NCBI GenBank assembly: GCA_003971905.1
Contig: RSEE01000065.1
Coordinates: forward strand, 1 to 64,000
From: Moniliella sp. 'wahieum'
Lineage: Eukaryota
Length of the DNA stretch: 64,000 nucleotides
Direction: 5' to 3'
The position numbers and the translations under genes are program-made. Shown one piece after another: positions 548 to 56,361 of this stretch. Each line of letters opens with the position of its first letter. Position 1 is the first letter of the stretch. The notes beneath the pieces were generated by a model that did no database searches, had not been told where the DNA came from, and saw nothing but the letters and a program-made list of their open reading frames with translations.

Positions 548-2656
548 TTACAGTCGACGGAATTCCCAATACTGGCGGATGGCATCGGCATCGAGGTCCT
601 GAAGTTCATCCACAGTCTCCTGGGGGAGTCCCATGGATCGCATAAAGAGCACGCCCTTGTGCAGCTCGGATTTTTGCCGCTCCTCGTCCCAAGAAAGCTC
701 CTTGGCCATGATGGCCACCACACGGGGAAGCGCCGATGTGGCCGCATCCACGTCAAGGAAAGAAAGACGAGAGCGGCGTGCAAGGAAGTCGGTGGCGGTC
801 TGTGCGTACTCGTTCCTGCAGGCATAGGATACCTCAGCCTCAGTCACTGGGAAGTGGGGGTCGAGACGGGAGCGTTGAGGTCCGACTTGCCACCGTCGCA
901 GCTCGCCCGAAGCCCGGGCTTGAAGGCAGTCGGCAGTGGCCTGCTCCAAAAGCGAAAAGGCGCGGTCACCATAGTTCTGCGCCAGGTATTGGGCCACATC
1001 CGTGTCGATGTTGTAGCGCTGAATGAGGTTAACATAGAGGGTCGGGTGCCAAAGGTGAGCACCAAGAAGGCGTGTGTTCTCCGTTTGGCATGGGCCGGCC
1101 TTCTTGTCCAGTCCATACTCGCTCACAGCGCGGTCAACCGTCTGCTGTGCCATCTCGCGGTAGGTCGTCCACTTGCCGCCGGCAATGGTGAGCAAGCCCG
1201 AGGAGGAAACGTTGATCATGTGGTTGCGCACCAACGACTGGGTATCGGCCGCATCAGGGTCCTTAACCAGGGGGCGCAGGCCCTTCCATGCCGAACGCAC
1301 GTGCTCCCGGGACAGCTCGTAGCCAGGTGCAATGTACTTGCGCACCTCACCCAGAATAAAAGCAATCTCCTCTTCACTGGGAATTGGGTTCTGCTCAATC
1401 GGATCCGGATGATCGGTCGTGCCGGCAATGGTTTGACCCTGCCAAGGCAGAAAGAAGATCACACGCCCATCACTTGTACGCGCGTCCAGGAGACCTCGTC
1501 CTCGAGGGCTAAAGTAGTCGGGGAGAGTAATATGCACGCCTGATGCGGGTTGGACAATTTCCGAGGCAGAGGGAGCGTCCATTTGACGGATGGCATCAGA
1601 GAAGGGACCTGTTGCGTTGATCACACCCTTGCACTTGATGTCCCACTCCTCGCCCGAAAAGCGGTCACGCACACGCACCCCACGCACTTGGTCCTCCTTG
1701 CCTGGAACGGGCGTCTTGTGCACAGCCACCACTTCGGTGTGGTTTGCGGCTACAGCACCATGGTGAATGGCAGTCAGAGCAATCATGACGTTCATTCGAG
1801 CATCGTTCTGCTGGCCGTCGTAGTACACCACCGAGCCTGTCAAGCCATCGTCCTTGAGCAAGGGCCAGGCCTCGAGAGTAGCCTTGCGGGTCAAGACGTA
1901 GGAGCCAGACATATTCTGCGACCCAGCCAAAAGGTCATACATCTTCATACCAGCAAAGAAATAAGGAATTTGCCACCAGGTGTAAACGGGGAGCATAATT
2001 GGAAGCGGGTCGGAAAGGTAAGGTGCAATCTTGAGGAAGATACGGCGCTCATGGAGAGCCTCCCGGACCATCTTGTATTGGTCGTAGTCCAGGTTCATCA
2101 CGGCTTTCTCCAGGTAGCGCACACCTCCATGCACCAACTTGGTCGACTTGGAGCTGGTGCCAGAGGCAAAGTCGTCCCGCTCCACAAGGGCAACCTTGAG
2201 CCCACGAGTGACCGCATCGAGAAGCACGCCCGTTCCTGTCGCACCGCCACCAATGATAACGAGGTCGTACTCATCTGAGTCGTCATCCTGGACGAACGAC
2301 TTGCCCCTCTTAAGCGCATCGAGCATTTCGGCACGCGAGGGTGCACGCCAGTCAATCGGCTGGAGAAAGGAGAGGAGTCAGCGCCTGAGGGGGAAGGGGG
2401 GGGGCGTAGGGATGGGGAAACGTACCGCAGTCTCATCATGGGGGCCCTCGCGGTCATGGGGTGCGGCAAAAACAACGGCAAGCGTAGCCACAGTGCCGGC
2501 GGCGAAGAGGAGCTTGTTGACGAGCGGGTTCCCTGGTTTAGGCTGCGGACGGGGCGGGGCTGAGGAGGATGCGTAGCGGCAGGAAAAGCGGAGGGGATGG
2601 GAGGAGGGCGTGTGGGCACGTGCACGCGCAGCCTGGGCAAGTATGCGCAGCGACAT
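548..2656 (-). CDS. GUT2: Mitochondrial FAD-dependent glycerol-3-phosphate dehydrogenase
   Basis: DLVIIGGGATGTG, SGTSSKSTKLVHGGVRYLEKA and GGKWTTYR motifs. N-terminal presequence/TM exon (MSLRILAQAARAR...) starts at 2656, with an intron at ~2360-2425 (GTACGT...GCTGAC...CAG). Confidence 0.95.
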
Positions 2657-3861
2657 GGCTGACGATGGAGCGGAGAGAGCGCGGGATGGTGGTGAAGGAG
2701 GAAGAGGGAGGCCGGTGGCGTGCAGCGGCAACAACTATACGACAGCTGCTGCTGCTGGCGGCTGGCGGCTGGCTGCTGGCTCTGGTCGCCGGCTGCTGCC
2801 GGCGGCACACTTGCGTTGTCCGCATACTGCCCCCCTGCGCTGTTTCTAATACGCCGTGCGGCACCCTGGTGGCGGGAAGAAGCGGGAGGCGCATCGGCCT
2901 GCGCTGGTGTGCAGTGCATCCAGCGTGCGTCCGGGGTGCCTCGGGTGCGCCGCCTGGCTGCCCCCGTGCGCAACACAGCACACCTTCCCGCTGCCGTCCC
3001 CGCACTTCACTGAGACCACACAGCCCCCATGCCGTCGCACACGCAAACACGAGTGGGCCGCAGCCGCCACAGCAGGCACCCGAGATCTCGGCCTCCACGC
3101 TCACCGGTCACCCGTCGCCGGTCGCCGATCACCGATTACCGGGTACCGACGGCACAACCAGCACCACCATCAACATGCACCACCATCAACTTTTGGACCA
3201 GCACACCCAGCATCCGCAAAGCCATCATTCAGTACTTTGCGCTGTTGGCTCGGAGGCTGGAGGAGGATTGGCTGGCACAGATCGCTGCACGCTTCCAATG
3301 CGGTCGACCGCCTAGACCGATGCCCACAAGCGCGCAACGCCAAAAAAGGCAGCGCGGCACACCGCTCCGTGTCAATCGATCGACGATCACTGAGCTGATC
3401 AGCATAATGTTTCTCCGCATAGCTGGGTGCCCGCACCAGTACTCAGGCATTAGGCCCTAGGATGGAAGTTGCTTCCTCTTTTCACTTTGGCAGTCTGGGG
3501 TCGACAGGCATTGAAGTCCGTGTGCTGCCGGCGCGTAGCCGCCTCGGCCCGGTGGGCTAGTAGCCCGCCGCGTGAAATGCAAACACAGATGGTGTCACGT
3601 GAAGTGGTCACGTGCCCCAGCGACAGCTCTCCTACAGTGCGGTGATTTGAAGTGCAAGAAAGGAGCAATGGTGCATGTTGGGACAAGCGAGCGCCTATGA
3701 ATATGACAAGACGCGAAGACCGTATTACAAGCGAGGTGGCGGCGACGTGAAGAGCCTGGGGAGGGCACGGACCATCGACCATCGATCATCCCCACACGGC
3801 ACACAGCACGAAGAGGGAGAAGTGTGTTTATGTAGGGACGCTCAGCAGAGCGGTTACCCAA

Positions 3862-4269
3862 ACCGCGGTGGTCTAACGGCAATGATGCATCTCTTCTACA
3901 TCCTCGGGGGAAGTGAAGATGGTGTGGGCGCTAGCGTTGGGCAAAATAGGCCTTCTGATGCCCACAGCTACCGGCTCCGGTCACCAGTTCAGTTCCCAGT
4001 GCGCACAAACATCATCTTCACGTCGATGGTGGGCGTAGTGCTTACACGAGTTCCATTGATGTTTCTTGATTGGTGGATCAATATACTGGATCGCATGCTA
4101 TAATGCGCACGGTACTCGGCTTTCCGAGTGCATGTATGCGACACTGTAGCATATCATCTTTGGCACACAGCACTGGGGGCTTTCTGTCGAGTGTCCAGAG
4201 AGTACCTGCACACACACCCAGGGAAGGGAAGATAAGATTGTGATCCGGGTTCGACTCCCGGTCGCGGTA
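3862..4269 (+). tRNA. tRNA-Arg(UCU) with a 335-nt intron (exons 3862-3898 and 4234-4269)
   Basis: Acceptor ACCGCGG/TCGCGGT+A73; D-arm GTCT-AACGGCAA-TGAT; anticodon arm CATCT-CT-TCT-A|A-AGATT; T-arm CCGGG-TTCGACT-CCCGG; TTTT terminator at 4273-4276. C32 can pair with the antepenultimate intron base G4231. Confidence 0.88.
3899..4233 (+). ncRNA. Highly structured tRNA intron, candidate independent ncRNA of unknown family
   Basis: Multiple long helices found by eye (3913-3925/4009-4021; 4025-4031/4152-4158; 4092-4098/4134-4140; 4114-4119/4124-4129) and an 11-bp complementarity between 3991-4001 and 4171-4181. Confidence 0.6.
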
Positions 4270-5199
4270 TACTTTTACTGCTCATGCTGAAGGGCGTGCC
4301 GTTATGTCACGGCCCTCACGATAAACCTCACAGGTAACTCTTCTAGGCCTCTCAACCGCATCATCGCGTCTCTTAACCGATGTTGCTTCCGTGTGATTGT
4401 GTCAGTGTGTCTTTTGAGGGTCCCTTTTGGAACGTGGGATCACCAACAGTCACCCTCATCTCGCTTTTCTCTTGTGCATACTCCTCATATGGCCAATCAG
4501 CGCTGGGAAGAACCTTTTTAGGAGGTTCCGGTGGTTCTCTGATGCGCGCCGTCCCTGTACAATACTTCGTTTCTGAGGCCAGACCATGTCCTCTCCTCCT
4601 GTATTTACCCCCCGCAAACTGCTGCAATGGAAGCCGCGATGAAGAGCTTTGAGCCTAACCTCCAGCCCGTCCATAGATGTATCAAATCCATCTGCCCCCT
4701 TCCTTTCATGGCATGTTTCCTGGCAGACTCCGAACGAGATTGGAAGGCACCGAGGGAGGCGAGGGATTCAAACTGTGGCTCAGCCCGGTCCTTGGCTGCA
4801 AGCACAACCTCACGCACATTGTGAAACACTACGACACCACGTACAACACATGCTAAGGCTCGTAGACGCGGTCCTTGTCTCGTTTGCTACGATCGTTTCG
4901 CCCCGGATACCAAACAACTGCTTCTGTTTCATTTGTCTTTCCCCCGACTCCAAGAGGAAAGTACCGCAAATACGCCAACATTACTTCTAGCTGCCCGCCA
5001 CGGGCATATAAGAATGGGTGGAACCACTGTTTCATAGACTGAGAGAATGGTGAATAGCAAGATGAAGGGGCCCGGATGAAGAATCGAAAAGCAAGGCAAA
5101 AAGCATAGGACGAGTGAAACAAAGACATGAGCAGGGGTAAAATCGGTAGCCGAGGAAACGGGGTGATGAAGCCGCTGTAATGGGCACCATTGCCCGCCA

Positions 5200-6319
5200 T
5201 TACCACGCTGGAGCCCAGTTATGGTACGATGCCGGGCGAGGGTAGTCCAGTGAACCAGGGGGGGCGGCGGGGTGTGCATAGTGGTGGGGGGGGCTAGTGT
5301 AGACAGTAGGCTTCCATGGCGTGCACTCGCGATCAGGGACGAGATGAAATGAAGGCTGCTCGTTTACCCCACCACCATAGTTGCATGGAGGGACGCTTCA
5401 TGTGGGTCCGGTGGGGGAGAGTAATAGCTTGGGGCATAATGAAACGAAGCCACAGGTTGCGACACGCGTGCCTGTGGAGACGGATGGAAATGGGGGTGGG
5501 ACGAGCGGGGAGGGGCAGCGGGATGAGAGAGGGGATGCGAGTGGGGGGGGGGTAAGGGAAGGATGGGGAGCGGAGATGGTTAAGCGAGTGCCGGGTGGAC
5601 GATGGCGGGAGAATGGGTTCAGGCGGACCTGTGTCGGCATACCCGCCTTGGTGTTGAGGAGGGTATGCGGAACATGAATAGCCCCACCGCCCCCCTTGCT
5701 CCATCGGCGGGGGAAGAGGGTCGAGTGTAGGCAGTTCAGGCAGGGCGGAGATGGGTGTCGGCAGCGCCGGCTCGAGCGGAGACCCGGAGACATCAACCAC
5801 AAGCGACGGAGGGGAGTAGGAACATGGACTCGTATTGACACCAACACCAACGGTCACAGCAGGGCCGAGAGGGGCCGGAGTCGATTGAGAAATAGAAGGG
5901 GGGCACGGAGTGGGACTGTTGGATTCGACATTTGCGATGGCAGCCAGGAGCCCCGTTGGGCCATGGAGACAGCGTCCGTCGGGCAGCGGCGACGAGATGC
6001 GAGCAGGAGGGATCGCAGGTGAGGCGAGGGTTCCAGCGGAGGGTCCGCTCAGGGGACGAGGCTTGATAAGTGAACTGGGGCGGCGAGGGCGGACATGGGG
6101 TTGAGCATGGTGGGCGCGCTGACGGCGTTCACGCTGTTGCTGCTGGGCAGAGGCGAAGTAGTGGCTGGGCTGAGCGGAGAAAGGCAGATGGGAGCATGTG
6201 TCGCGCACACAGGAGATGCGACGAAGCGAGTGCAGCAACGGGCGTGGAGCGAAATGCGGCGAAGGCAGTGAGGATGAGTCTGCCATCATGGCTGGGGAGA
6301 TGGAGGCGGTGGTATGCAT
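5200..6319 (-). CDS. Hypothetical Pro/Ser-rich protein
   Basis: Long low-complexity ORF (5333-6664) with a plausible ATG near 6319, a possible short intron, and a probable frameshifted end (...SYHNWAPAW*) at ~5200. No recognisable domain. Confidence 0.35.
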
Positions 6320-9300
6320 GGTGTGGGAGCACACGCTGAGCCCCCAAGAGGCCCAAGGGCGGGTTGGGAGGCCGGCCGCCACCGATCCGTCGCAGACGCC
6401 CTGCCGAACGTCCGCAGCGGTGGGGTCGTGCGCGGGGCCAGTGTGGAGTACTCTTGCACCATCATGCGTGTCTGAGTAGATGACTCGGCACACTGTGCTT
6501 GCGCGGCGATCCGGCCTAAGGCATGGAGGCACTGAGAGTCTCGCCGCACGGCCCGCAGCACGGCACCGCAGCAACCCGGCAGAATCATCGATCAGGAACG
6601 ATCGCACTAGCAAGCACGGGGGCAGCACACCCCGGCACTGCACCGCATGGCGCCGCCATGCCACGTGCTACGGCCCCGTAAGGCGTTCGTGTGCAGGGTG
6701 CCCAGGGTGCGACTTCCGGCATGTCAGGAATGGGGCGTGGGACCAGTGTTCGCCCCCCGCCCCCCTCGGCACAAGGCGTGTGCTGCAGGGCTAACTAGCT
6801 AACTGCGCGACACCCCCCATCTGGGCAGCTGTCCCACAGTGCCTCTGTGCCACTGAGCCCAACGGGGCAACACGGGGTTACACAGTGGGCCAGTGCGGCC
6901 TCCAACGGCGCGTGCCGCCTATGGTCCTCGAAGCTCGATCCTCGATCTAGAAGGATCTAGAGCTCACCGGCCGCGCCCTCGATGGCCTGCGTCGATGCAG
7001 TGCTGGATGGCATCGAGTAATGATTGTGGTGGGGCAATGGATATTGGGTGGGACACAGGCGACTCTTGATTAAATCGCCATGCGGTCAGTGGATACACCA
7101 GAGATGGATCCTCGGCCCCACCTGTCAATCACAGCCGCCGGCGCATCCTCCAGACACAAATGCACCCCAGCCCATTGCCCACCAACCCCCGGGACGAGGC
7201 GGTATGGAAGTCATTCCGTATTCATGTCGACCCGATCATACGCTCCACGTCCAGTGTGGTCCTCCAGTGCATCAAGCCGGGCGCCGGATTTCATCAGATC
7301 TGGAAGTGATTTAACTTGGGCGGTCGTGGACGCGATCGCGCACCGAGCTGAACTTTTCCGGACCTGGGCGTCAGTTTGCAAGTCTGTCGTGCTTCTCGTT
7401 TTCGCACGCGCCTGGTTAATTCCATATCCTTCATCTACTCGGTTCCGCGTGATCTGCTCTTGCTTCTTGCCCACGAGCAACTGCTATCCATTCCCCAACC
7501 TCCTCTCGACTCCGGTCCCCCTCTCGGCAGCCCCCAACTGTATGAGGCGTCATCTACGTGTTGCCGCAGGTACTACTGTGTGGCATGGAGGAATCGCTAA
7601 GCTAATCACTTGCATGTGTACATAGCAGTGAATCAAAGGAAATGATTCTAAGGGGACAAGACAATTAAGGGCCAAAGGGAAAAATCACGGGAGGCGAGAG
7701 GGCGAGAAGAAAGTCAAGAGTAAAAAGAGACCTGAGGGAAGAAAACGATGCAAGAGACGAGATGAAAGCCGAGGCGAGGGAACGAGTCAAATCATGCGGA
7801 GGTGGAGAGAGATGGGAGATGTTGATTGCCCTGAAGAGAGATCAAGACGGAATGATACTGAAGAAGCCGTGCTGAGATTGTGGGATGTAGGATGAGAAGC
7901 CAAGAAAAGAGACGAAAGAAAAGGGGAAGTGGCTTCTATGTAGGATGCCTATAGACATTGGTTCGTGACAATTATATATGGCGACTGAACGCTGTCGGAT
8001 TCTTTGCTTTCTCCTTTGTGCCACTTTTACCGGCTTCTTGGTCTCAGCCTCATCTCGTCTATTGTCCAGGTTCCCCACATGTGGAGGTGATCGCCAACCT
8101 CACCTGTATTCCTGGTAGTCTATACAAATAAGGTGAAGTGCGCCTTCGTGTTCATTTCTCTAATACTATTGGCGATTTCTTGTGATGTGAATGGTGCCTA
8201 GTAAACTGATGATGCAAAGAGTTCAAAGACATCCTGCTAGCCTGTGTGATCCTATGCAGCTGCTCTTATTCCTGCTCAAAATAGCTCGATGGTTAAACCG
8301 TTTGCGTTTCCGACCAATAGGTGATTTCGAGCGATTCTCTTCCTGATCATTCCATCATTCCCGCCCCAAATAGTACCTTCCTCTCTCATATACATTGGAA
8401 CGGTTTGGCTGCTGATTCCACTGGAGGGTTCATTCTCCACGTGTGCAGTGAACTTATTGATGTAGGTGCCAATTAACGGGGGTTGCAATCAAAGCTTGGG
8501 TTGGCCGATTCAACGACGCCCCTCTATAGCCCAAGGAGGCCGACAAAGACAGCCATGCAGCAACCGTACAAAAGGTGAATGGAACAACACACTGAAGAGA
8601 CCACCGCCTATATAAACCCGCATCTCGGCCCCTGGTATCGCCCACGCGTTTTGAACACCGGCCACGCACTCTCCAGCAGCTACGGGCGGGAAGCGGTGAA
8701 GCTATAGGGAAGTGGGATCAGGTTCTATAGACCCGAACGCCCAGCACTTTCCCTTCCGTGAATTGCATCGACGCCTGGTGTGCTTCTTGTTGGTTTCGTC
8801 TCTTCTCCTAAAAGTTCATTCGTTCAGAGAGAAGCACGCATCCTCTCCGTACGCATCCGGCAAGGTTCCGAATAGAGTTGATTTGTTCCAGTGACCGAAC
8901 GCATTCGAGCCGTTGCCTGCATCGCCTTCAATCCCAGCCAACCTCCTAGGACCAAGGACTGCTATAGGCGTGGTGGTCACATTCCTATAATTTCCAGTGC
9001 ATACTCAACCCTTCGCCAAGCGAACCGACGCGTCGATTAAGGCCGCCTCACTTCACCTCCTGTAGTACTATAACACAGTGAGAGGCGACTCCGTTCCGCC
9101 TCTCTTCCGCTCCACCTTGTTGTGTCTCCGGACTGCATTCCCCTGATTGCATCACCACCACTTCTTCCTCTGCCTTGCTCGCCTCCCACAACGTGATGGC
9201 CCACAACCCCTTCATCTGCCAACAGGCGCCAACAAGGGGTGACTCCCCGGTGACTAATCATGGGTGGTCCGACCTCCGCCAGTAAAACAACTATTGAGTC

Positions 9301-13361: not shown

Positions 13362-16300
13362 TCACCACTTGCGCTTAGCCGCCGCCTTTTTCTTCGGTCG
13401 CCGTTCGTCCTCCGAGTCGTCTCCATGTTCTCGACGGTGTCGGTCGTCGGCTTTGGCCGCCTTGCGTTCCAAGGCATCCCAGTCCTCGCCTTCGTCCGAC
13501 TCGTCGTCAAAGGACGCTGAGCCCGAATCATCCGATGCGTCTTCATCAAAGTCCGACTCGGATCCAGCGGTGGACTCGTCGTCCGATCCCATGTCCCCGC
13601 CCATTGCTTCCGAAAAGTCCGACTCTTGCTCCGACTCGGAGGAGGCGTCTTCGTCGTCCGAGCTGCCCTGCAAGAACCCCCAGCCACCGACACGGAAGAA
13701 TTCCGCCGGATCGTCCTGTACCGTCTTCATGATCGCGGTCCAGTTGAGGTTGACCTGTCCGACCGAGATGGGGATGTCGACGGAATCGAGCCACTCCTTG
13801 ATGCTGTCCAGCTGTTGGCTGGGGATCGAGTTGAGGTGAACCACAGGCTTGGAGTAGTCCTTCATTACAAACACCAAATCAAAGTTCTTCAGACCATACT
13901 GCACGCGTTCCAGGTGAGCAATCTCCACCTCGGCCAAGGTAAGGACAAAAAAGGGGGGTTCAGAAAGATGGACCAGGGCGTCCATAGTCGGCGCAACCAA
14001 CACCGAGCTGCGGAAGGGAACCGCATTGAACGCTAGCTCGCGGAACGGAATGTCCATCTCCAGCCGTCCGCGGCTGGCATCAGCAATCTTTTGGGTAAAC
14101 GCCTTGAACTCCTTGTTAAGTTGGTGACGGTGCCTCCGTTCCTCGTTTTCCAGCTCAATCTCATCGTCGTCACCGGTGCGCTTGCGTTTTCGGTTCCCGG
14201 TCTCGTCAAACTGCACATCGCTCGCCTCTCGGAAGAACTGAATATCGCGGGCCTCTTCTTACCGACCATGATGGGATGCTTCAAGTGCACATGCACCAGC
14301 ACAATCAGCTCATGGTCGGTCGGTTGGCTGGAAGAAGAGGTGCTTGATGTTGCTAAACAGCAAATCCACCTTCTGGTGGAGCGGCGAGGTAAACCGGAGG
14401 CCGTTTTGGTGGATCTCCAGGTCCCCGGGTACCCGTTTGCCCTCCAATGCTGGGCGTGGGAACACCTCGCGAAGCACTGGTGGGCGCTGTTTGTTGAGAA
14501 TCAGTTTCTCCTGCTCCACCACGTCGGCCAACTCCTTCTTTTCCGCCTCACGCTTGGTCGCTGCCTTCTTAAATTCGGTGATCTCCTTGTAAAGCTCAGC
14601 GAAATGATACGCATCTTGGCTGCGGAAAGTCATGTTGCGAACAAACGTCGCATCTGGGTCTTCAAACGGCTGGTCCTCCTTCTTGCCCAAGATCTGTCCC
14701 GGGGAGATAAAGTTGAAGCGGAGGTAAGTCCACTCTCCCTCGTCAGATTTGGACAGGTTCTTGAGGGTATGGATATGGAACGGCACGGCAAAGCCATAGA
14801 TGGGGATGATGATGGACGAGGCGCGCTGGTCGAGGAAGATCTTCAGGTCCTTAGCCCGCGAAGGAACCACGTGGTCCCCCTTGTAGCTCTCAAACCGCTT
14901 CCACACCTGACCTCTCGACTTGCTCTCCCCCCCATCGTCGTTGTCAAAGCGAGCGAGGCCCTCCTCTTGCTTCTGCCGAGCGAGCTCCTTCTGGTGCTCC
15001 TTGATGCGATTGTCCACACTTTCCTCTTGGTTGGTGGTGCGGTTGGAACTGCGTAGGCGTCGCCCGCCAAACGACTCGAGAAGCGCATCATCCGCCTTGG
15101 CTTTCGGTTTGGGCTTGGGTTTCTCCTCCTCGCTCTTTTCTTGGAAGAAGGAAAGGTCCGAGGTGGACTTGACCGCCGTTGTCAGGAAAGACGCAGGTGC
15201 ATTTGCATTGACCCTCACAGTGTCGATGAGGAGAAGAGCGTAGGTCTTGCCCGGGTGGTTGGGGTCGGGGATGTTCTCCACCCCAAGGCTGACATCAAAA
15301 ATCATGTCCTTCTTGATTTTCCGCTCGTTGCGTGGTGAAAGGGAAAGGCAGAGTCGCGGAATTCCAGGCCAGTGGCAAACCCAATCGACTTTGTCAGGTA
15401 GGAAGCAAGGTCGGGGTCCTTGGACTGAAGAAATTCGACTGCCTGGTTGTAAACCTGTTTGCCCGTCACGCCCTCGCGAAGGAAGTCCGAAGCGACCTTT
15501 TGTTGCGTCTCGAGGAGGAGCGAATAGGCAGCTGATTGCTTCTCGTGAGGGTCAACCAGATAGGTACGCCCCACATTGGAGCAATAGGAGCGGTAGCGAA
15601 TTCCCACCTCGGCAATGATCACACTGCCCCCTCCGTCGGCACCCTCGAGACGTTTGTTGTTGCTCTGGGCCGAGCTACGCAGGTCGTACTCGCCGCCACT
15701 CATGATGATGGGGGTGTAGCACAAGTCAGCATAAGACGGGTCCAGATCAGGCAAGACAGCCTTCTGCTTGCGCCAAAAGCTATTGTCGTCCAGCTTGTTC
15801 TCAATATTGATAGCCAACTTTTCGTGGGAGACCTTGCGTCCATCATCAAGAACGTTGGACATCTCATCCACCAAGTAGTCCTTGAGCAGTGCTGTCGACA
15901 TCTTGGCCGCAATACGGGTGAACTTGATTTCCTCCTCGTCTTTGGCGGCCCAGATGGCGCTGAAGGCAGGACCAACATCGAGGGATACCCACTTGTTGGT
16001 ATCAATTGCCTTGCCCCAGACTGAGCCCCACTCTTCGGCAAACTTGCCTACCACTTTGTCCTTGGAAAAGATCCCCACCTGGCCCGAAGTGGCATCCTTG
16101 ACCTGAGCAAAGAGGGCATCCCAGCCTGCCTTGTTCACTGCTTCGTCCTTACTCCGCTTGATAATCTCGACGGCAACACCCTCCTGGTTCTTGGCCAGCG
16201 GCTCGAGAAGTTGAGCTGTGCGAATGTCAGAGTCAGCCTTGAACAGGTCGCAAGAGGGGGTTAGAGAGGGGGCTTACCCTTGGCAGATGAAGTGACAAAT

Positions 16301-26023: not shown

Positions 26024-27214
26024 TCATGCACGCAGTCCTCCCACCTCAGCGCTGTGGGCCTTGCCCTCGTAGATCATCTCGGCCATGACCTTACCTGTGC
26101 CAGGCCCGAGGGTAATGCCCCAGCAGGTATGGCCTGCCGCAATGTAGAGTCCTGTTTCGGGCAGGCCGTCAATCAAGGGGCCACGGAACGCTCCGGCCGG
26201 AGGTAGCACGCGTGCTGTGCCTCGAGCAAGGCACCATCGCCCAAGCAGGTAGGTGCAATGATGCGAATCTGCTCCATGAGTTTTTTGGTCTGGCGCGGCT
26301 CGTAGCCAATGTCATCTGCCAGCCGGGCAGCGGCTCATTGTCCGAGCCACCACAGATGTACACCGTTCCGTCCCCGCGGGCATAAATCTCCGGTCCACGA
26401 GCAACAATGCCCGTGTCCCCAAAGCGCATGTCGGTGAAGAGGCAGTGAGCGGTTGTCGGCCTGGTACCGCGAAGAATGATCGAGTGCGCACGAGAGCCAC
26501 CGACAGTACGGCCTTTGCGAGCGACCTTGCTGTGGTACAGCAGGCTGGTAGGTTGGATCAAATTCTTGAACAGCTCTCCGGTCCAAGGCCCTGCGGCCAC
26601 CACCACCCGGTCACAATCCAGCGTTTCCGCCCGGGCGCCATCCACACTCTCAATCACCAGACCCTTGATCGTGTCTTCTTCCGAAAGGAGAATCTGAGTA
26701 GCCTTGGTGCCCACCCCACTCGACGCCTTGCTGTTTGCACGCCTCCTCGACCAAGTACTCAACAAGGAACTTGGGTGTGACCTGGGCCGTCGAACCCTTG
26801 CCGCCCATCTGTTTGGTAGAGGTGACAATCTTGGGGTCGATCCAGTGCAGCTCCTTGGGACACTTGGAGCGATGCTTGGAAGTGTCAATGTTGACCTGCA
26901 GCGTTTCGACCTCGCGGTACCCCCAGCGCTCAACGCCATTCCCTCCTCCGCCAGGTCCTTGTGCAGCTGATAACTGAGACGGGCCAAAGAAGAGGTGGAG
27001 AAGCCGTGCCAATCGCGGGCCAAGAAGCCGCCAGAACGGCCACTGGCCGACGCCGCCAGCTCATAGCTCGCCTCGAGAAGCGTCACCTTGCTGCCGGGCG
27101 GGCGGTAGGGATGCTTGGCCATGTAATACAGGATGGATGCGCCTATGATGCCGCCGCCAATGATACCACGTGCTGGGGTGGGGTGTGGGTGTGGGTGTGC
27201 TGGAAGGAGGACAT
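26024..27214 (-). CDS. FAD-dependent oxidoreductase (DAO/Tda3-like)
   Basis: IIGGGIIG, ASGRSGGFLARDW, VVAAGPWTG, PEIYARGDGTVYICG, AAGHTCWGITLGPGTGKVMAE. Confidence 0.88.
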
Positions 27215-55766: not shown

Positions 55767-56290
55767 AGGTTGGGACGGAGGGTAGGAGGGAGTAGGATAC
55801 GACGTGCACCCCTTGCCATGCGGCAACGACGAGGAGATCGTGGCCCACCCCTCTGTGCCGCTCCGAGTGTTTCTCTTGCATCTGTTTCCCATGGTCCTTT
55901 CTTTTCCGTAGGTATCTTTTGCTCCACGGCCCTTTCCCCCGCCTCCCGCCATGTTTCGCTTTCCTCCCTCTTCCATCTGCCCTACCCGCCTTTCCTCCCC
56001 CGTCTCGAGGTGAACTTTTTTTTTGTCTATTGTTTGGTGCTGGAACGCCGACAAGCTGCTTCCCCCATCCGCCATTGATCTACATACACCATTTCCTCAG
56101 GTCCTCTTCAGCTGCGAGCTGCACAGGTGGAGTGGCGGAGAGACGGTTGTAGGTGGCAGCTGGTGAGATGCAGACAACGTGCTATAACGCGCACTGGATT
56201 CGATTGCTCACATGGGGATCGCAGTGACTAGTGACTAGTGAGGACGATCGAATGGGCCGTCAGCGCGTCAGTACAGTTCCAAAAGTAAAG

Positions 56291-56361
56291 TGGACGAACA
56301 GGGAATTGAACCCGGACCTCATGCATGCTAAGCAAGCGCTCTACCCCTGAGCTATCCGCCC
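56291..56361 (-). tRNA. tRNA-Ala(AGC), intronless
   Basis: GGGCGGA TA GCTC AGGGGTA GAGC G CTTGC TT AGC AT GCATG AGGTC CGGG TTCAATT CCCTG TTCGTCC A. G3:U70 Ala identity pair, followed by a T-run. The variable loop/T-stem looks one base short. Confidence 0.92.

Follow-up and report, generated by a model that had tools for sequence, protein, structure and literature searches.

A tRNA-Arg(UCU) gene with an outsized intron at the canonical position in nuclear DNA of a basidiomycete

The evidence supports the presence of a nuclear fungal tRNA-Arg(UCU) gene, interrupted by a 335-nt intron at the canonical site, at positions 3862 to 4269 of the forward strand of the 64,000-nt stretch of contig RSEE01000065.1 of Moniliella sp. 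'wahieum' (the whole of this stretch, 64 kb long, is the window referred to below). We lean, with modest confidence, toward a live gene whose intron is outsized and mechanistically canonical, and whose palindrome-rich filler would be excised and degraded. The initial annotation of this DNA had described the intron as a multi-domain RNA with a loop-loop pseudoknot, a candidate novel non-coding RNA released by tRNA splicing. Judged from the sequence, its internal helices are best read as unlike a fold selected at the RNA level.

When introns are allowed, ARAGORN reports a split tRNA spanning 3862-4269 (+), with the intron placed non-canonically and the gene called Leu(aag). After in silico removal of 3899-4233, the program finds a normal 73-nt tRNA-Arg(tct) with a 7-bp acceptor stem and a 5-bp T stem, in which the exons make up a standard cloverleaf and the intron falls between tRNA positions 37 and 38, a single base separating it from the 3' side of the anticodon. 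Since removing 3899-4233 yields this clean tRNA, the exon and intron boundaries of the initial annotation are correct, and its claim of a tRNA-Arg(UCU) intron at that place holds. The parts of the gene are as follows.

3862-3898 (+): 5' exon, tRNA-Arg(UCU) positions 1-37 (ARAGORN on the spliced sequence; ARAGORN intron-mode span), with the acceptor strand at 3862-3868, the D arm, the 5' strand of the anticodon stem at 3888-3892 and the anticodon TCT at 3895-3897.
3869-3879 (+): A-box region, tRNA positions 8-19, TGGTCTAACGG (read from the sequence).
3899-4233 (+): intron, 335 nt, canonical 37/38 position (ARAGORN on the spliced sequence; constrained fold, see below).
4234-4269 (+): 3' exon (ARAGORN on the spliced sequence; constrained fold), with A38, the 3' strand of the anticodon stem at 4235-4239, the variable loop, the T arm at 4245-4261, the acceptor strand at 4262-4268 and the discriminator A4269.
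4248-4258 (+): B box, GGTTCGACTCC (read from the sequence).
4273-4276 (+): TTTT run, likely RNA polymerase III (Pol III) terminator, 4 nt past the gene (sequence).

The gene is missed by ARAGORN at default settings and by an Rfam scan of the whole window at gathering thresholds, both of which call a tRNA-Ala alone, the sole match of the Rfam scan. That neither calls a tRNA here would fit two unrelated tRNA-like fragments lying 335 nt apart by accident, with no intron between them. We find this very unlikely, however, since the two halves complement each other over 7 bp in the acceptor stem and 4 bp in the anticodon stem and together form one Arg(tct) cloverleaf, and since the stretch immediately preceding the 3' half is in the canonical register for pairing with the anticodon loop. 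Default scans of the window return a single tRNA gene, an intron-less tRNA-Ala(AGC) at 56290-56361 (-).

The features of a Pol III type 2 gene are present, namely internal A and B boxes, which we take to be such by eye from their consensus, and a downstream T run. ACTTTT is found just downstream of both tRNA genes of the window (as CTTTACTTTTGG behind tRNA-Ala), and this common signal suggests that a run of four T residues is a sufficient Pol III terminator in this organism. From the end of the A-box region (3879) to the start of the B box (4248) there is a gap of 368 bp; separations of up to ~365 bp are stated to be still active (PMC12498455).

The splice sites are of the kind expected for a tRNA intron. 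In a fold of the pre-tRNA (3862-4269) with the cloverleaf helices enforced, the anticodon stem runs on into a helix formed by the anticodon and the intron.

3893-3897 (+): C32 to U36, the 5' strand of the helix between anticodon and intron, partner 4227-4231 (constrained pre-tRNA fold).
4227-4234 (+): 3' strand of the same helix (4227-4231), followed by a 3-nt bulge of A4232, U4233 and A4234 (constrained fold).

The proximal base pair of this constrained fold is C3893-G4231 (C32), which together with four further pairs makes up the 5-bp anticodon-intron helix. The 3' splice site lies inside the unpaired bulge 4232-4234, between two helices, while A3898, the final base of the 5' exon, is unpaired and the distance from C32 to the exon end is 6 nt. 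The ends of the intron form a short rod (3899/4226, 3901-3904/4221-4224 and 3906-3908/4217-4219), from which the large insert protrudes. This layout matches the regularities of eukaryotic pre-tRNAs, that is, the proximal base pair, the 3-nt bulge and the 6-nt rule (PMC6614914), and conservation of the tR(UCU) intron is reported for both animals and fungi (PMC12168002).

What sets this intron apart is its size. Canonical eukaryotic tRNA introns are given as 6-133 nt in a 2014 review (PMC4090602) and as roughly 10 to 100 nt in a 2026 paper (PMC13079951), so that 335 nt amounts to ~2.5 times the longest eukaryotic value in print (133 nt) and lies outside the described length range, a range that describes the known members and is no mechanistic requirement. 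No report of a fungal tRNA intron of such size was found in the literature searched, which did not extend to most subscription journals or to GtRNAdb. The G+C content of the intron is 52.8%, and TTTT is absent from its sense strand (3899-4233). This absence carries no weight, because 64% of the 335-nt windows of the same DNA are equally devoid of TTTT on the sense strand and 56% on the antisense strand; we therefore rejected it, as uninformative, as a sign of selection for Pol III read-through.

The mechanism that we propose starts from a Pol III-transcribed tRNA-Arg(UCU) gene of an Ustilaginomycotina-like basidiomycete, whose intron would have grown to 335 nt at the canonical position. TFIIIC would bridge the 368 bp between the A and B boxes, and Pol III would be expected to read through the intron, since the sense strand contains no TTTT. 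The SEN endonuclease, measuring from the mature domain, would cut at 3898/3899 and 4233/4234, the exons would be joined by Trl1, and the linear intron would then be degraded, as other introns of fungal tRNAs are. The hairpins and alternative helices inside it are best seen as side effects of imperfect palindromes and local repeats in the DNA (3908-3997, 4095-4152, and the motifs GTGAAGA and GGCACACAGCAC, which occur in the flank as well).

As for the fold drawn by the initial annotation, all of the strings it quoted lie where it placed them, and every helix it named exists. The helix closing its domain 1 (H1) has 13 bp with one G-U pair, and of the inner hairpins, TGGGCA/TGCCCA has a mean pair probability of 0.97 and ACTCGG/CCGAGT one of 0.99. 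The loop-loop complementarity is real and one pair longer than claimed (12 bp, two G-U pairs), with a duplex energy of -20.5 kcal/mol and a mean pair probability of 0.36 over the 11 pairs 3991-4001/4171-4181 originally proposed. The helix closing domain 2 (4025-4031/4152-4158) is present, with 7 bp and two G-U pairs, but at -4.9 kcal/mol its duplex is weak.

3913-3925 (+): H1, 5' strand (duplex -17.9 kcal/mol; ensemble probability 0.004).
4009-4021 (+): H1, 3' strand (helix search; string check).
3991-4002 (+): first arm of the long-range pairing of 12 bp, which is nested in the minimum free energy (MFE) structure but would be a pseudoknot in the presence of H1.
4170-4181 (+): second arm of the same pairing (MFE; helix search; duplex energy).

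As the preferred structure of the whole intron, this fold does not hold up. The free MFE structure contains neither H1, nor the domain 2 closing helix, nor CGCATGC/GTATGCG, whose mean pair probabilities are 0.004, 0.000 and 0.001, respectively, and it reaches -120.8 kcal/mol, compared with -111.6 kcal/mol when all of the originally proposed helices are enforced, before any pseudoknot bonus. Instead, the MFE structure pairs 3909-3924 with 3982-3996 (pair probability 0.95 for 3920-3924/3982-3986) and has a nested long-range helix, 3997-4009/4159-4175. Its main hairpins are the following.

3908-3997 (+): 90-nt imperfect palindrome, the long MFE hairpin around TGGGCA/TGCCCA (self-BLAST 63% over 95 columns, E 0.002).
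4095-4152 (+): another imperfect palindrome, which forms a long hairpin with GUACUCGG-CUUU-CCGAGUGC (4112-4131) as its cap (MFE; self-comparison).
4176-4207 (+): terminal 11-bp MFE hairpin (GGG GCUUUCUG ... CAGAGAGU. CCU), which competes with the domain 3 hairpin of the initial annotation (MFE).

Three partners compete for the strand 3908-3926, each excluding the others (duplex energies -19.7, -17.9 and -13.5 kcal/mol), and the probability of H1 is just 0.004 because its 5' strand has these alternatives. On these models, the choice between the folds is beyond energy alone.

The modeled energies make only a weak case for a selected RNA fold in the intron. On the sense strand the MFE has a z-score of -1.90 (3 of 100 shuffles fold as well) and, in a second run, of -1.98 (5/150), whereas on the antisense strand the values are -2.77 (1/100) and -2.83 (0/150). 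The initial annotation had taken the frequent G-U pairs as a mark of selection on RNA structure, an argument that fails: a G-U pair in the sense strand is a C-A mismatch in the antisense strand, so that selection on the transcript should have made the sense strand the better folder, and yet the antisense strand folds better. The ensemble diversity (z of -0.08 for the sense and -0.15 for the antisense strand, 150 shuffles) is the same as that of the shuffles, so no single fold is defined. Among 43 background windows of 335 nt, taken at 1500-nt steps along the same DNA (mean z -0.10, standard deviation 1.25), four reach a z of -1.9 or lower. The comparison with dinucleotide-shuffled controls that the initial annotation had proposed thus ends at the edge of refutation: the fold energy is in the best ~3% of shuffles, but it is equaled at the rates just given by shuffles and by ordinary windows.

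The intron sense strand gave no match at E<=10 to the 4227 models of Rfam 15 (region 3700-4450), in agreement with the initial annotation, which had not recognized the RNA family. This result speaks against RNase P/MRP RNA, signal recognition particle RNA, a group I intron, a known ribozyme and a known small nucleolar RNA (snoRNA), and no C/D or H/ACA layout is visible by eye on the sense strand. The antisense strand has C/D-like matches to ceN40, snR76 and sR1, which we rejected as chance since they score 17.8, 15.1 and 11.8 bits against gathering thresholds of 35, 55 and 45; by eye, they have no D box beside the terminal stem. The match to ceN40, a nematode C/D snoRNA model, lies at 4261-4369 (-) with an E-value of 0.15, overlaps the 3' strand of the tRNA acceptor and the downstream spacer, and is probably due to chance. 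A blastn search of the intron region against plasmids gave no match, and against phages it gave four records, all matching just a 22-nt stretch of the T arm. Neither the 5' exon nor a degenerate version of it was found at any locus (0 each) among bacterial and archaeal contigs, which is weak evidence, being confined to bacteria and archaea. A spurious open reading frame (ORF) at 3675-4103 crosses the 5' exon and the first 205 nt of the intron; none of the seven candidate relatives scored for it reached E<=10, and the single match found among 1.84 billion representatives (E 3.6e-4), to a repeat protein, covers the exon region and was put down to chance. Within the 64-kb window, no complementarity of the intron to a target goes beyond chance (best 17 nt at 94%, E 0.19).

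Three repeats connect parts of the intron with one another or with the upstream flank.

3743-3753 (+): upstream-flank copy of the H1 motif, CGACGTGAAGA, perfectly complementary to 4015-4025 (inverted repeat search).
3798-3809 (+): upstream-flank 12-mer, GGCACACAGCAC, identical to 4162-4173 in the intron (direct repeat search).
4221-4233 (+): 3' end of the intron, GGGAAGGGAAGAT, a direct repeat of GGGAAGTGAAGAT at 3908-3920, 12/13 identical (self-comparison).

The first of these sits 109-119 nt before the tRNA gene, and the two flank copies together span 53-119 nt upstream of the mature 5' end, presumably outside the Pol III transcript. A flank-to-intron similarity as high as that observed is reached by 4 of 400 shuffles for direct repeats and by 17 of 400 for inverted ones, and just 2 of 316 other 200-nt windows have a 12-mer in common with the intron. 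That parts of the helix strands are found again in the flank points to repeats at the DNA level. Taken with the strand comparison, the background windows and the ensemble diversity, it suggests that the complementarity in the intron arose by duplication and inversion of local DNA. The flank, with its inverted 11-mer and direct 12-mer, and the intron may have exchanged sequence by local duplication or inversion. The third repeat, GGGAAG[T/G]GAAGAT near both intron ends, has 10 of 500 shuffles scoring as high. Its copy at 3908-3920 could itself pair with the anticodon loop, in a mini-helix competing with that of the 3' copy, and it may be a trace of an older intron of 22 nt (3899-3920). A tandem duplication relating domains 1 and 2 is weakly supported, with 8 of 300 shuffles as high and a gappy alignment.

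The main rival to a live gene, possible in our view though doubtful, is a dead or dying tRNA gene in which a foreign or locally duplicated segment has landed in a once-short intron, so that transcription would be poor or splicing would fail, while other tR(UCU) copies in the genome do the work. It would account for a length 2.5 times the published maximum, for an A-B gap at or beyond the cited limit, for the C27-U43 and U13-U22 mismatches of the spliced tRNA, for the GGGAAG[T/G]GAAGAT repeat near both intron ends, as a duplication would leave it, and for the short motifs common to the intron and the 5' flank. However, everything that expression and splicing require is intact, namely the acceptor stem, the T arm, the B box, the proximal base pair, the 3-nt bulge and the terminator. 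By eye, the insert is not bordered by terminal inverted repeats with a target-site duplication, and no second copy of the intron was found in the 64-kb window; the initial annotation had named a multi-copy mobile element as the finding that would overturn it. An insertion of a miniature inverted-repeat transposable element or a foldback element finds little support: there is an inverted repeat of 13-16 bp, but by eye no flanking duplication, and no other copy in the 64-kb window. Nor does the interior resemble tRNA halves: we rejected an origin from decayed tandem tRNA copies, as 352 and 368 of 500 shuffles score as high against the 5' half and the 3' half, and one from a decayed 5' half plus leader, with 479 of 500.

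Several points weigh against a live gene with a neutral, degraded intron. Both the expression and the splicing of the gene are predicted from the DNA, and the spliced tRNA has the C27-U43 mismatch and the U13-U22 pair in the ARAGORN model. A neutral insert of 335 nt, at the spacing limit of TFIIIC, should be costly, and its persistence might hint at a function. Of 2000 dinucleotide-shuffled versions of the intron, 0.4% contain a helix of 13 bp or longer with no more than one G-U pair; two or more helices of 11 bp or longer with no more than two G-U pairs, as observed, are present in 1.75%, and one or more of the latter kind in 17.35%. H1 is thus beyond chance, the pseudoknot pairing alone is within chance and both together are unusual, and the intron holds more long complementarity than the shuffles. 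By MFE and by ensemble energy alike, the sense strand ranks within the top 3% or so of its shuffles (5/150 and 4/150). Finally, with a pseudoknot bonus of about -20 kcal/mol, the fold of the initial annotation could, on this model, rival the nested MFE structure.

The excess of long helices and the two energies would also be expected of a functional, lineage-specific structured RNA, for which the tRNA gene would provide the Pol III promoter and the SEN sites, and which would fold into several domains, possibly with 3991-4002/4170-4181 as a tertiary pairing, and persist as a 335-nt molecule, linear or circular, for instance as a ribonucleoprotein scaffold or a base-pairing regulator like the yeast free introns (fitRNAs). 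The region 3913-4021, folded in isolation, takes exactly the form that the initial annotation drew (-42.0 kcal/mol), the long-range pairing is strong, the intron sequence is unique in the window, and there are precedents in archaeal tRNA-Trp C/D introns (PMC4090602) and in the yeast free introns (PMC13079951). We nevertheless consider such an RNA unlikely: the antisense strand outscores the sense strand, the ensemble is no better defined than those of shuffles, the z-score is matched by ordinary windows, the alternative helices are mutually exclusive, the helix motifs also occur well upstream of the gene, and the sense strand has neither an Rfam family nor a visible C/D or H/ACA layout. A variant to which we give only a slim chance is a stable, lineage-specific intron RNA matured by tRNA splicing and carrying a conformational switch, in which 3908-3925 would pair alternately with 3982-3997, 4009-4024 and 4150-4162. 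If a functional RNA were indeed released, this would be the first tRNA gene among eukaryotes to supply both the Pol III promoter and the processing cassette of a large non-coding RNA lodged in its intron, and an intron both conserved and stable would define a new class of tRNA-intron-borne RNA in eukaryotes.

The preferred reading, a live gene, would stretch more than one accepted limit. TFIIIC would have to span ~370 bp from the A box to the B box, the intron processed by the SEN endonuclease would be 2.5 times the length of the longest described in eukaryotes, and an organism of the Trl1 type would need to dispose of, or use, an excised RNA of 335 nt. As the gene was missed both by ARAGORN at default settings and by the Rfam tRNA model, long-intron tRNA genes may be under-counted in fungal genomes, an annotation blind spot through which a genome could wrongly seem to lack an isoacceptor.

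The window is nuclear DNA of a basidiomycete near Ustilaginomycotina. The ORF at 548-2326 (-) codes for a GUT2-type mitochondrial glycerol-3-phosphate dehydrogenase of 592 amino acids with DAO and DAO_C domains, whose best named relatives, at 64-66% identity, are from Thecaphora, Tilletia, Ceraceosorus, Jaminaea and similar genera; two database proteins are 88-90% identical to it, so closer relatives have already been sequenced. This ORF is without the EF-hand domains (PF13499/PF13405) listed for most of its relatives of 760-900 amino acids, and hence the gene may continue in a further exon below 548. The tRNA-Arg gene is flanked by this ORF on one side and, on the other, by a gene that ends at 5333 (-). 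A fragment of the SPT16 gene (FACT complex) lies at 14310-15305 (-) and 15302-16138 (-). One ORF carries both the SPT16 and the PH_SPT16 domain and has a second ORF of the same orientation next to it, the pattern that spliceosomal introns dividing a gene would produce. Another ORF, at 26169-27122 (-), codes for a second FAD-dependent oxidoreductase (DAO domain, E 2.3e-10) and is unrelated to the intron. A patch of low GC content at 7600-8400 (0.45-0.46, versus 0.60 for the window) shows a change of GC skew from +0.43 (7601-8000) to -0.16 (8001-8400) and of AT skew from +0.37 to -0.24.

Introns of a few hundred nucleotides in the anticodon loop are known from bacterial and organellar tRNA genes, where they are group I introns. 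The intron described here resembles them in size and position, but it lies in a nuclear gene, has splice sites of the protein-enzyme type and gave no group I match in Rfam at E<=10. In archaea, tRNA-Trp introns can contain a box C/D guide RNA (PMC4090602), and with these it would share the principle of a second RNA gene within a tRNA intron, although the sense strand has no C/D layout (C box RUGAUGA and D box CUGA at the ends) and H1 is paired throughout where a kink-turn would be needed. Yeast free tRNA introns regulate mRNAs, and circles are formed from one yeast intron family (PMC13079951); these fitRNAs are excised linear fungal tRNA introns, as ours would be, able to base-pair and regulated in their levels, but they are short, and our intron has no target complementarity beyond chance in the window. 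Metazoan tRNA intronic circular RNAs (tricRNAs) also come from longer-than-usual structured introns with a bulge-helix-bulge-like motif, and ours too could be released as one molecule (PMC6614914). They are stable circles whose ends are joined by RtcB. A circular form would be a possibility here, but Trl1 is reported for fungi including Basidiomycota and normally leaves linear introns (PMC10946435). The closest likeness is to the introns of the SEN/TSEN type, such as those of tR(UCU) (PMC12168002), with which it has in common the 37/38 position, the C32-G pair, the anticodon-intron helix, the 3-nt bulge and the 6-nt spacing, and from which it differs in being 335 nt long instead of 6-133 nt (PMC4090602) and in carrying a large branched insert beyond the closing rod.

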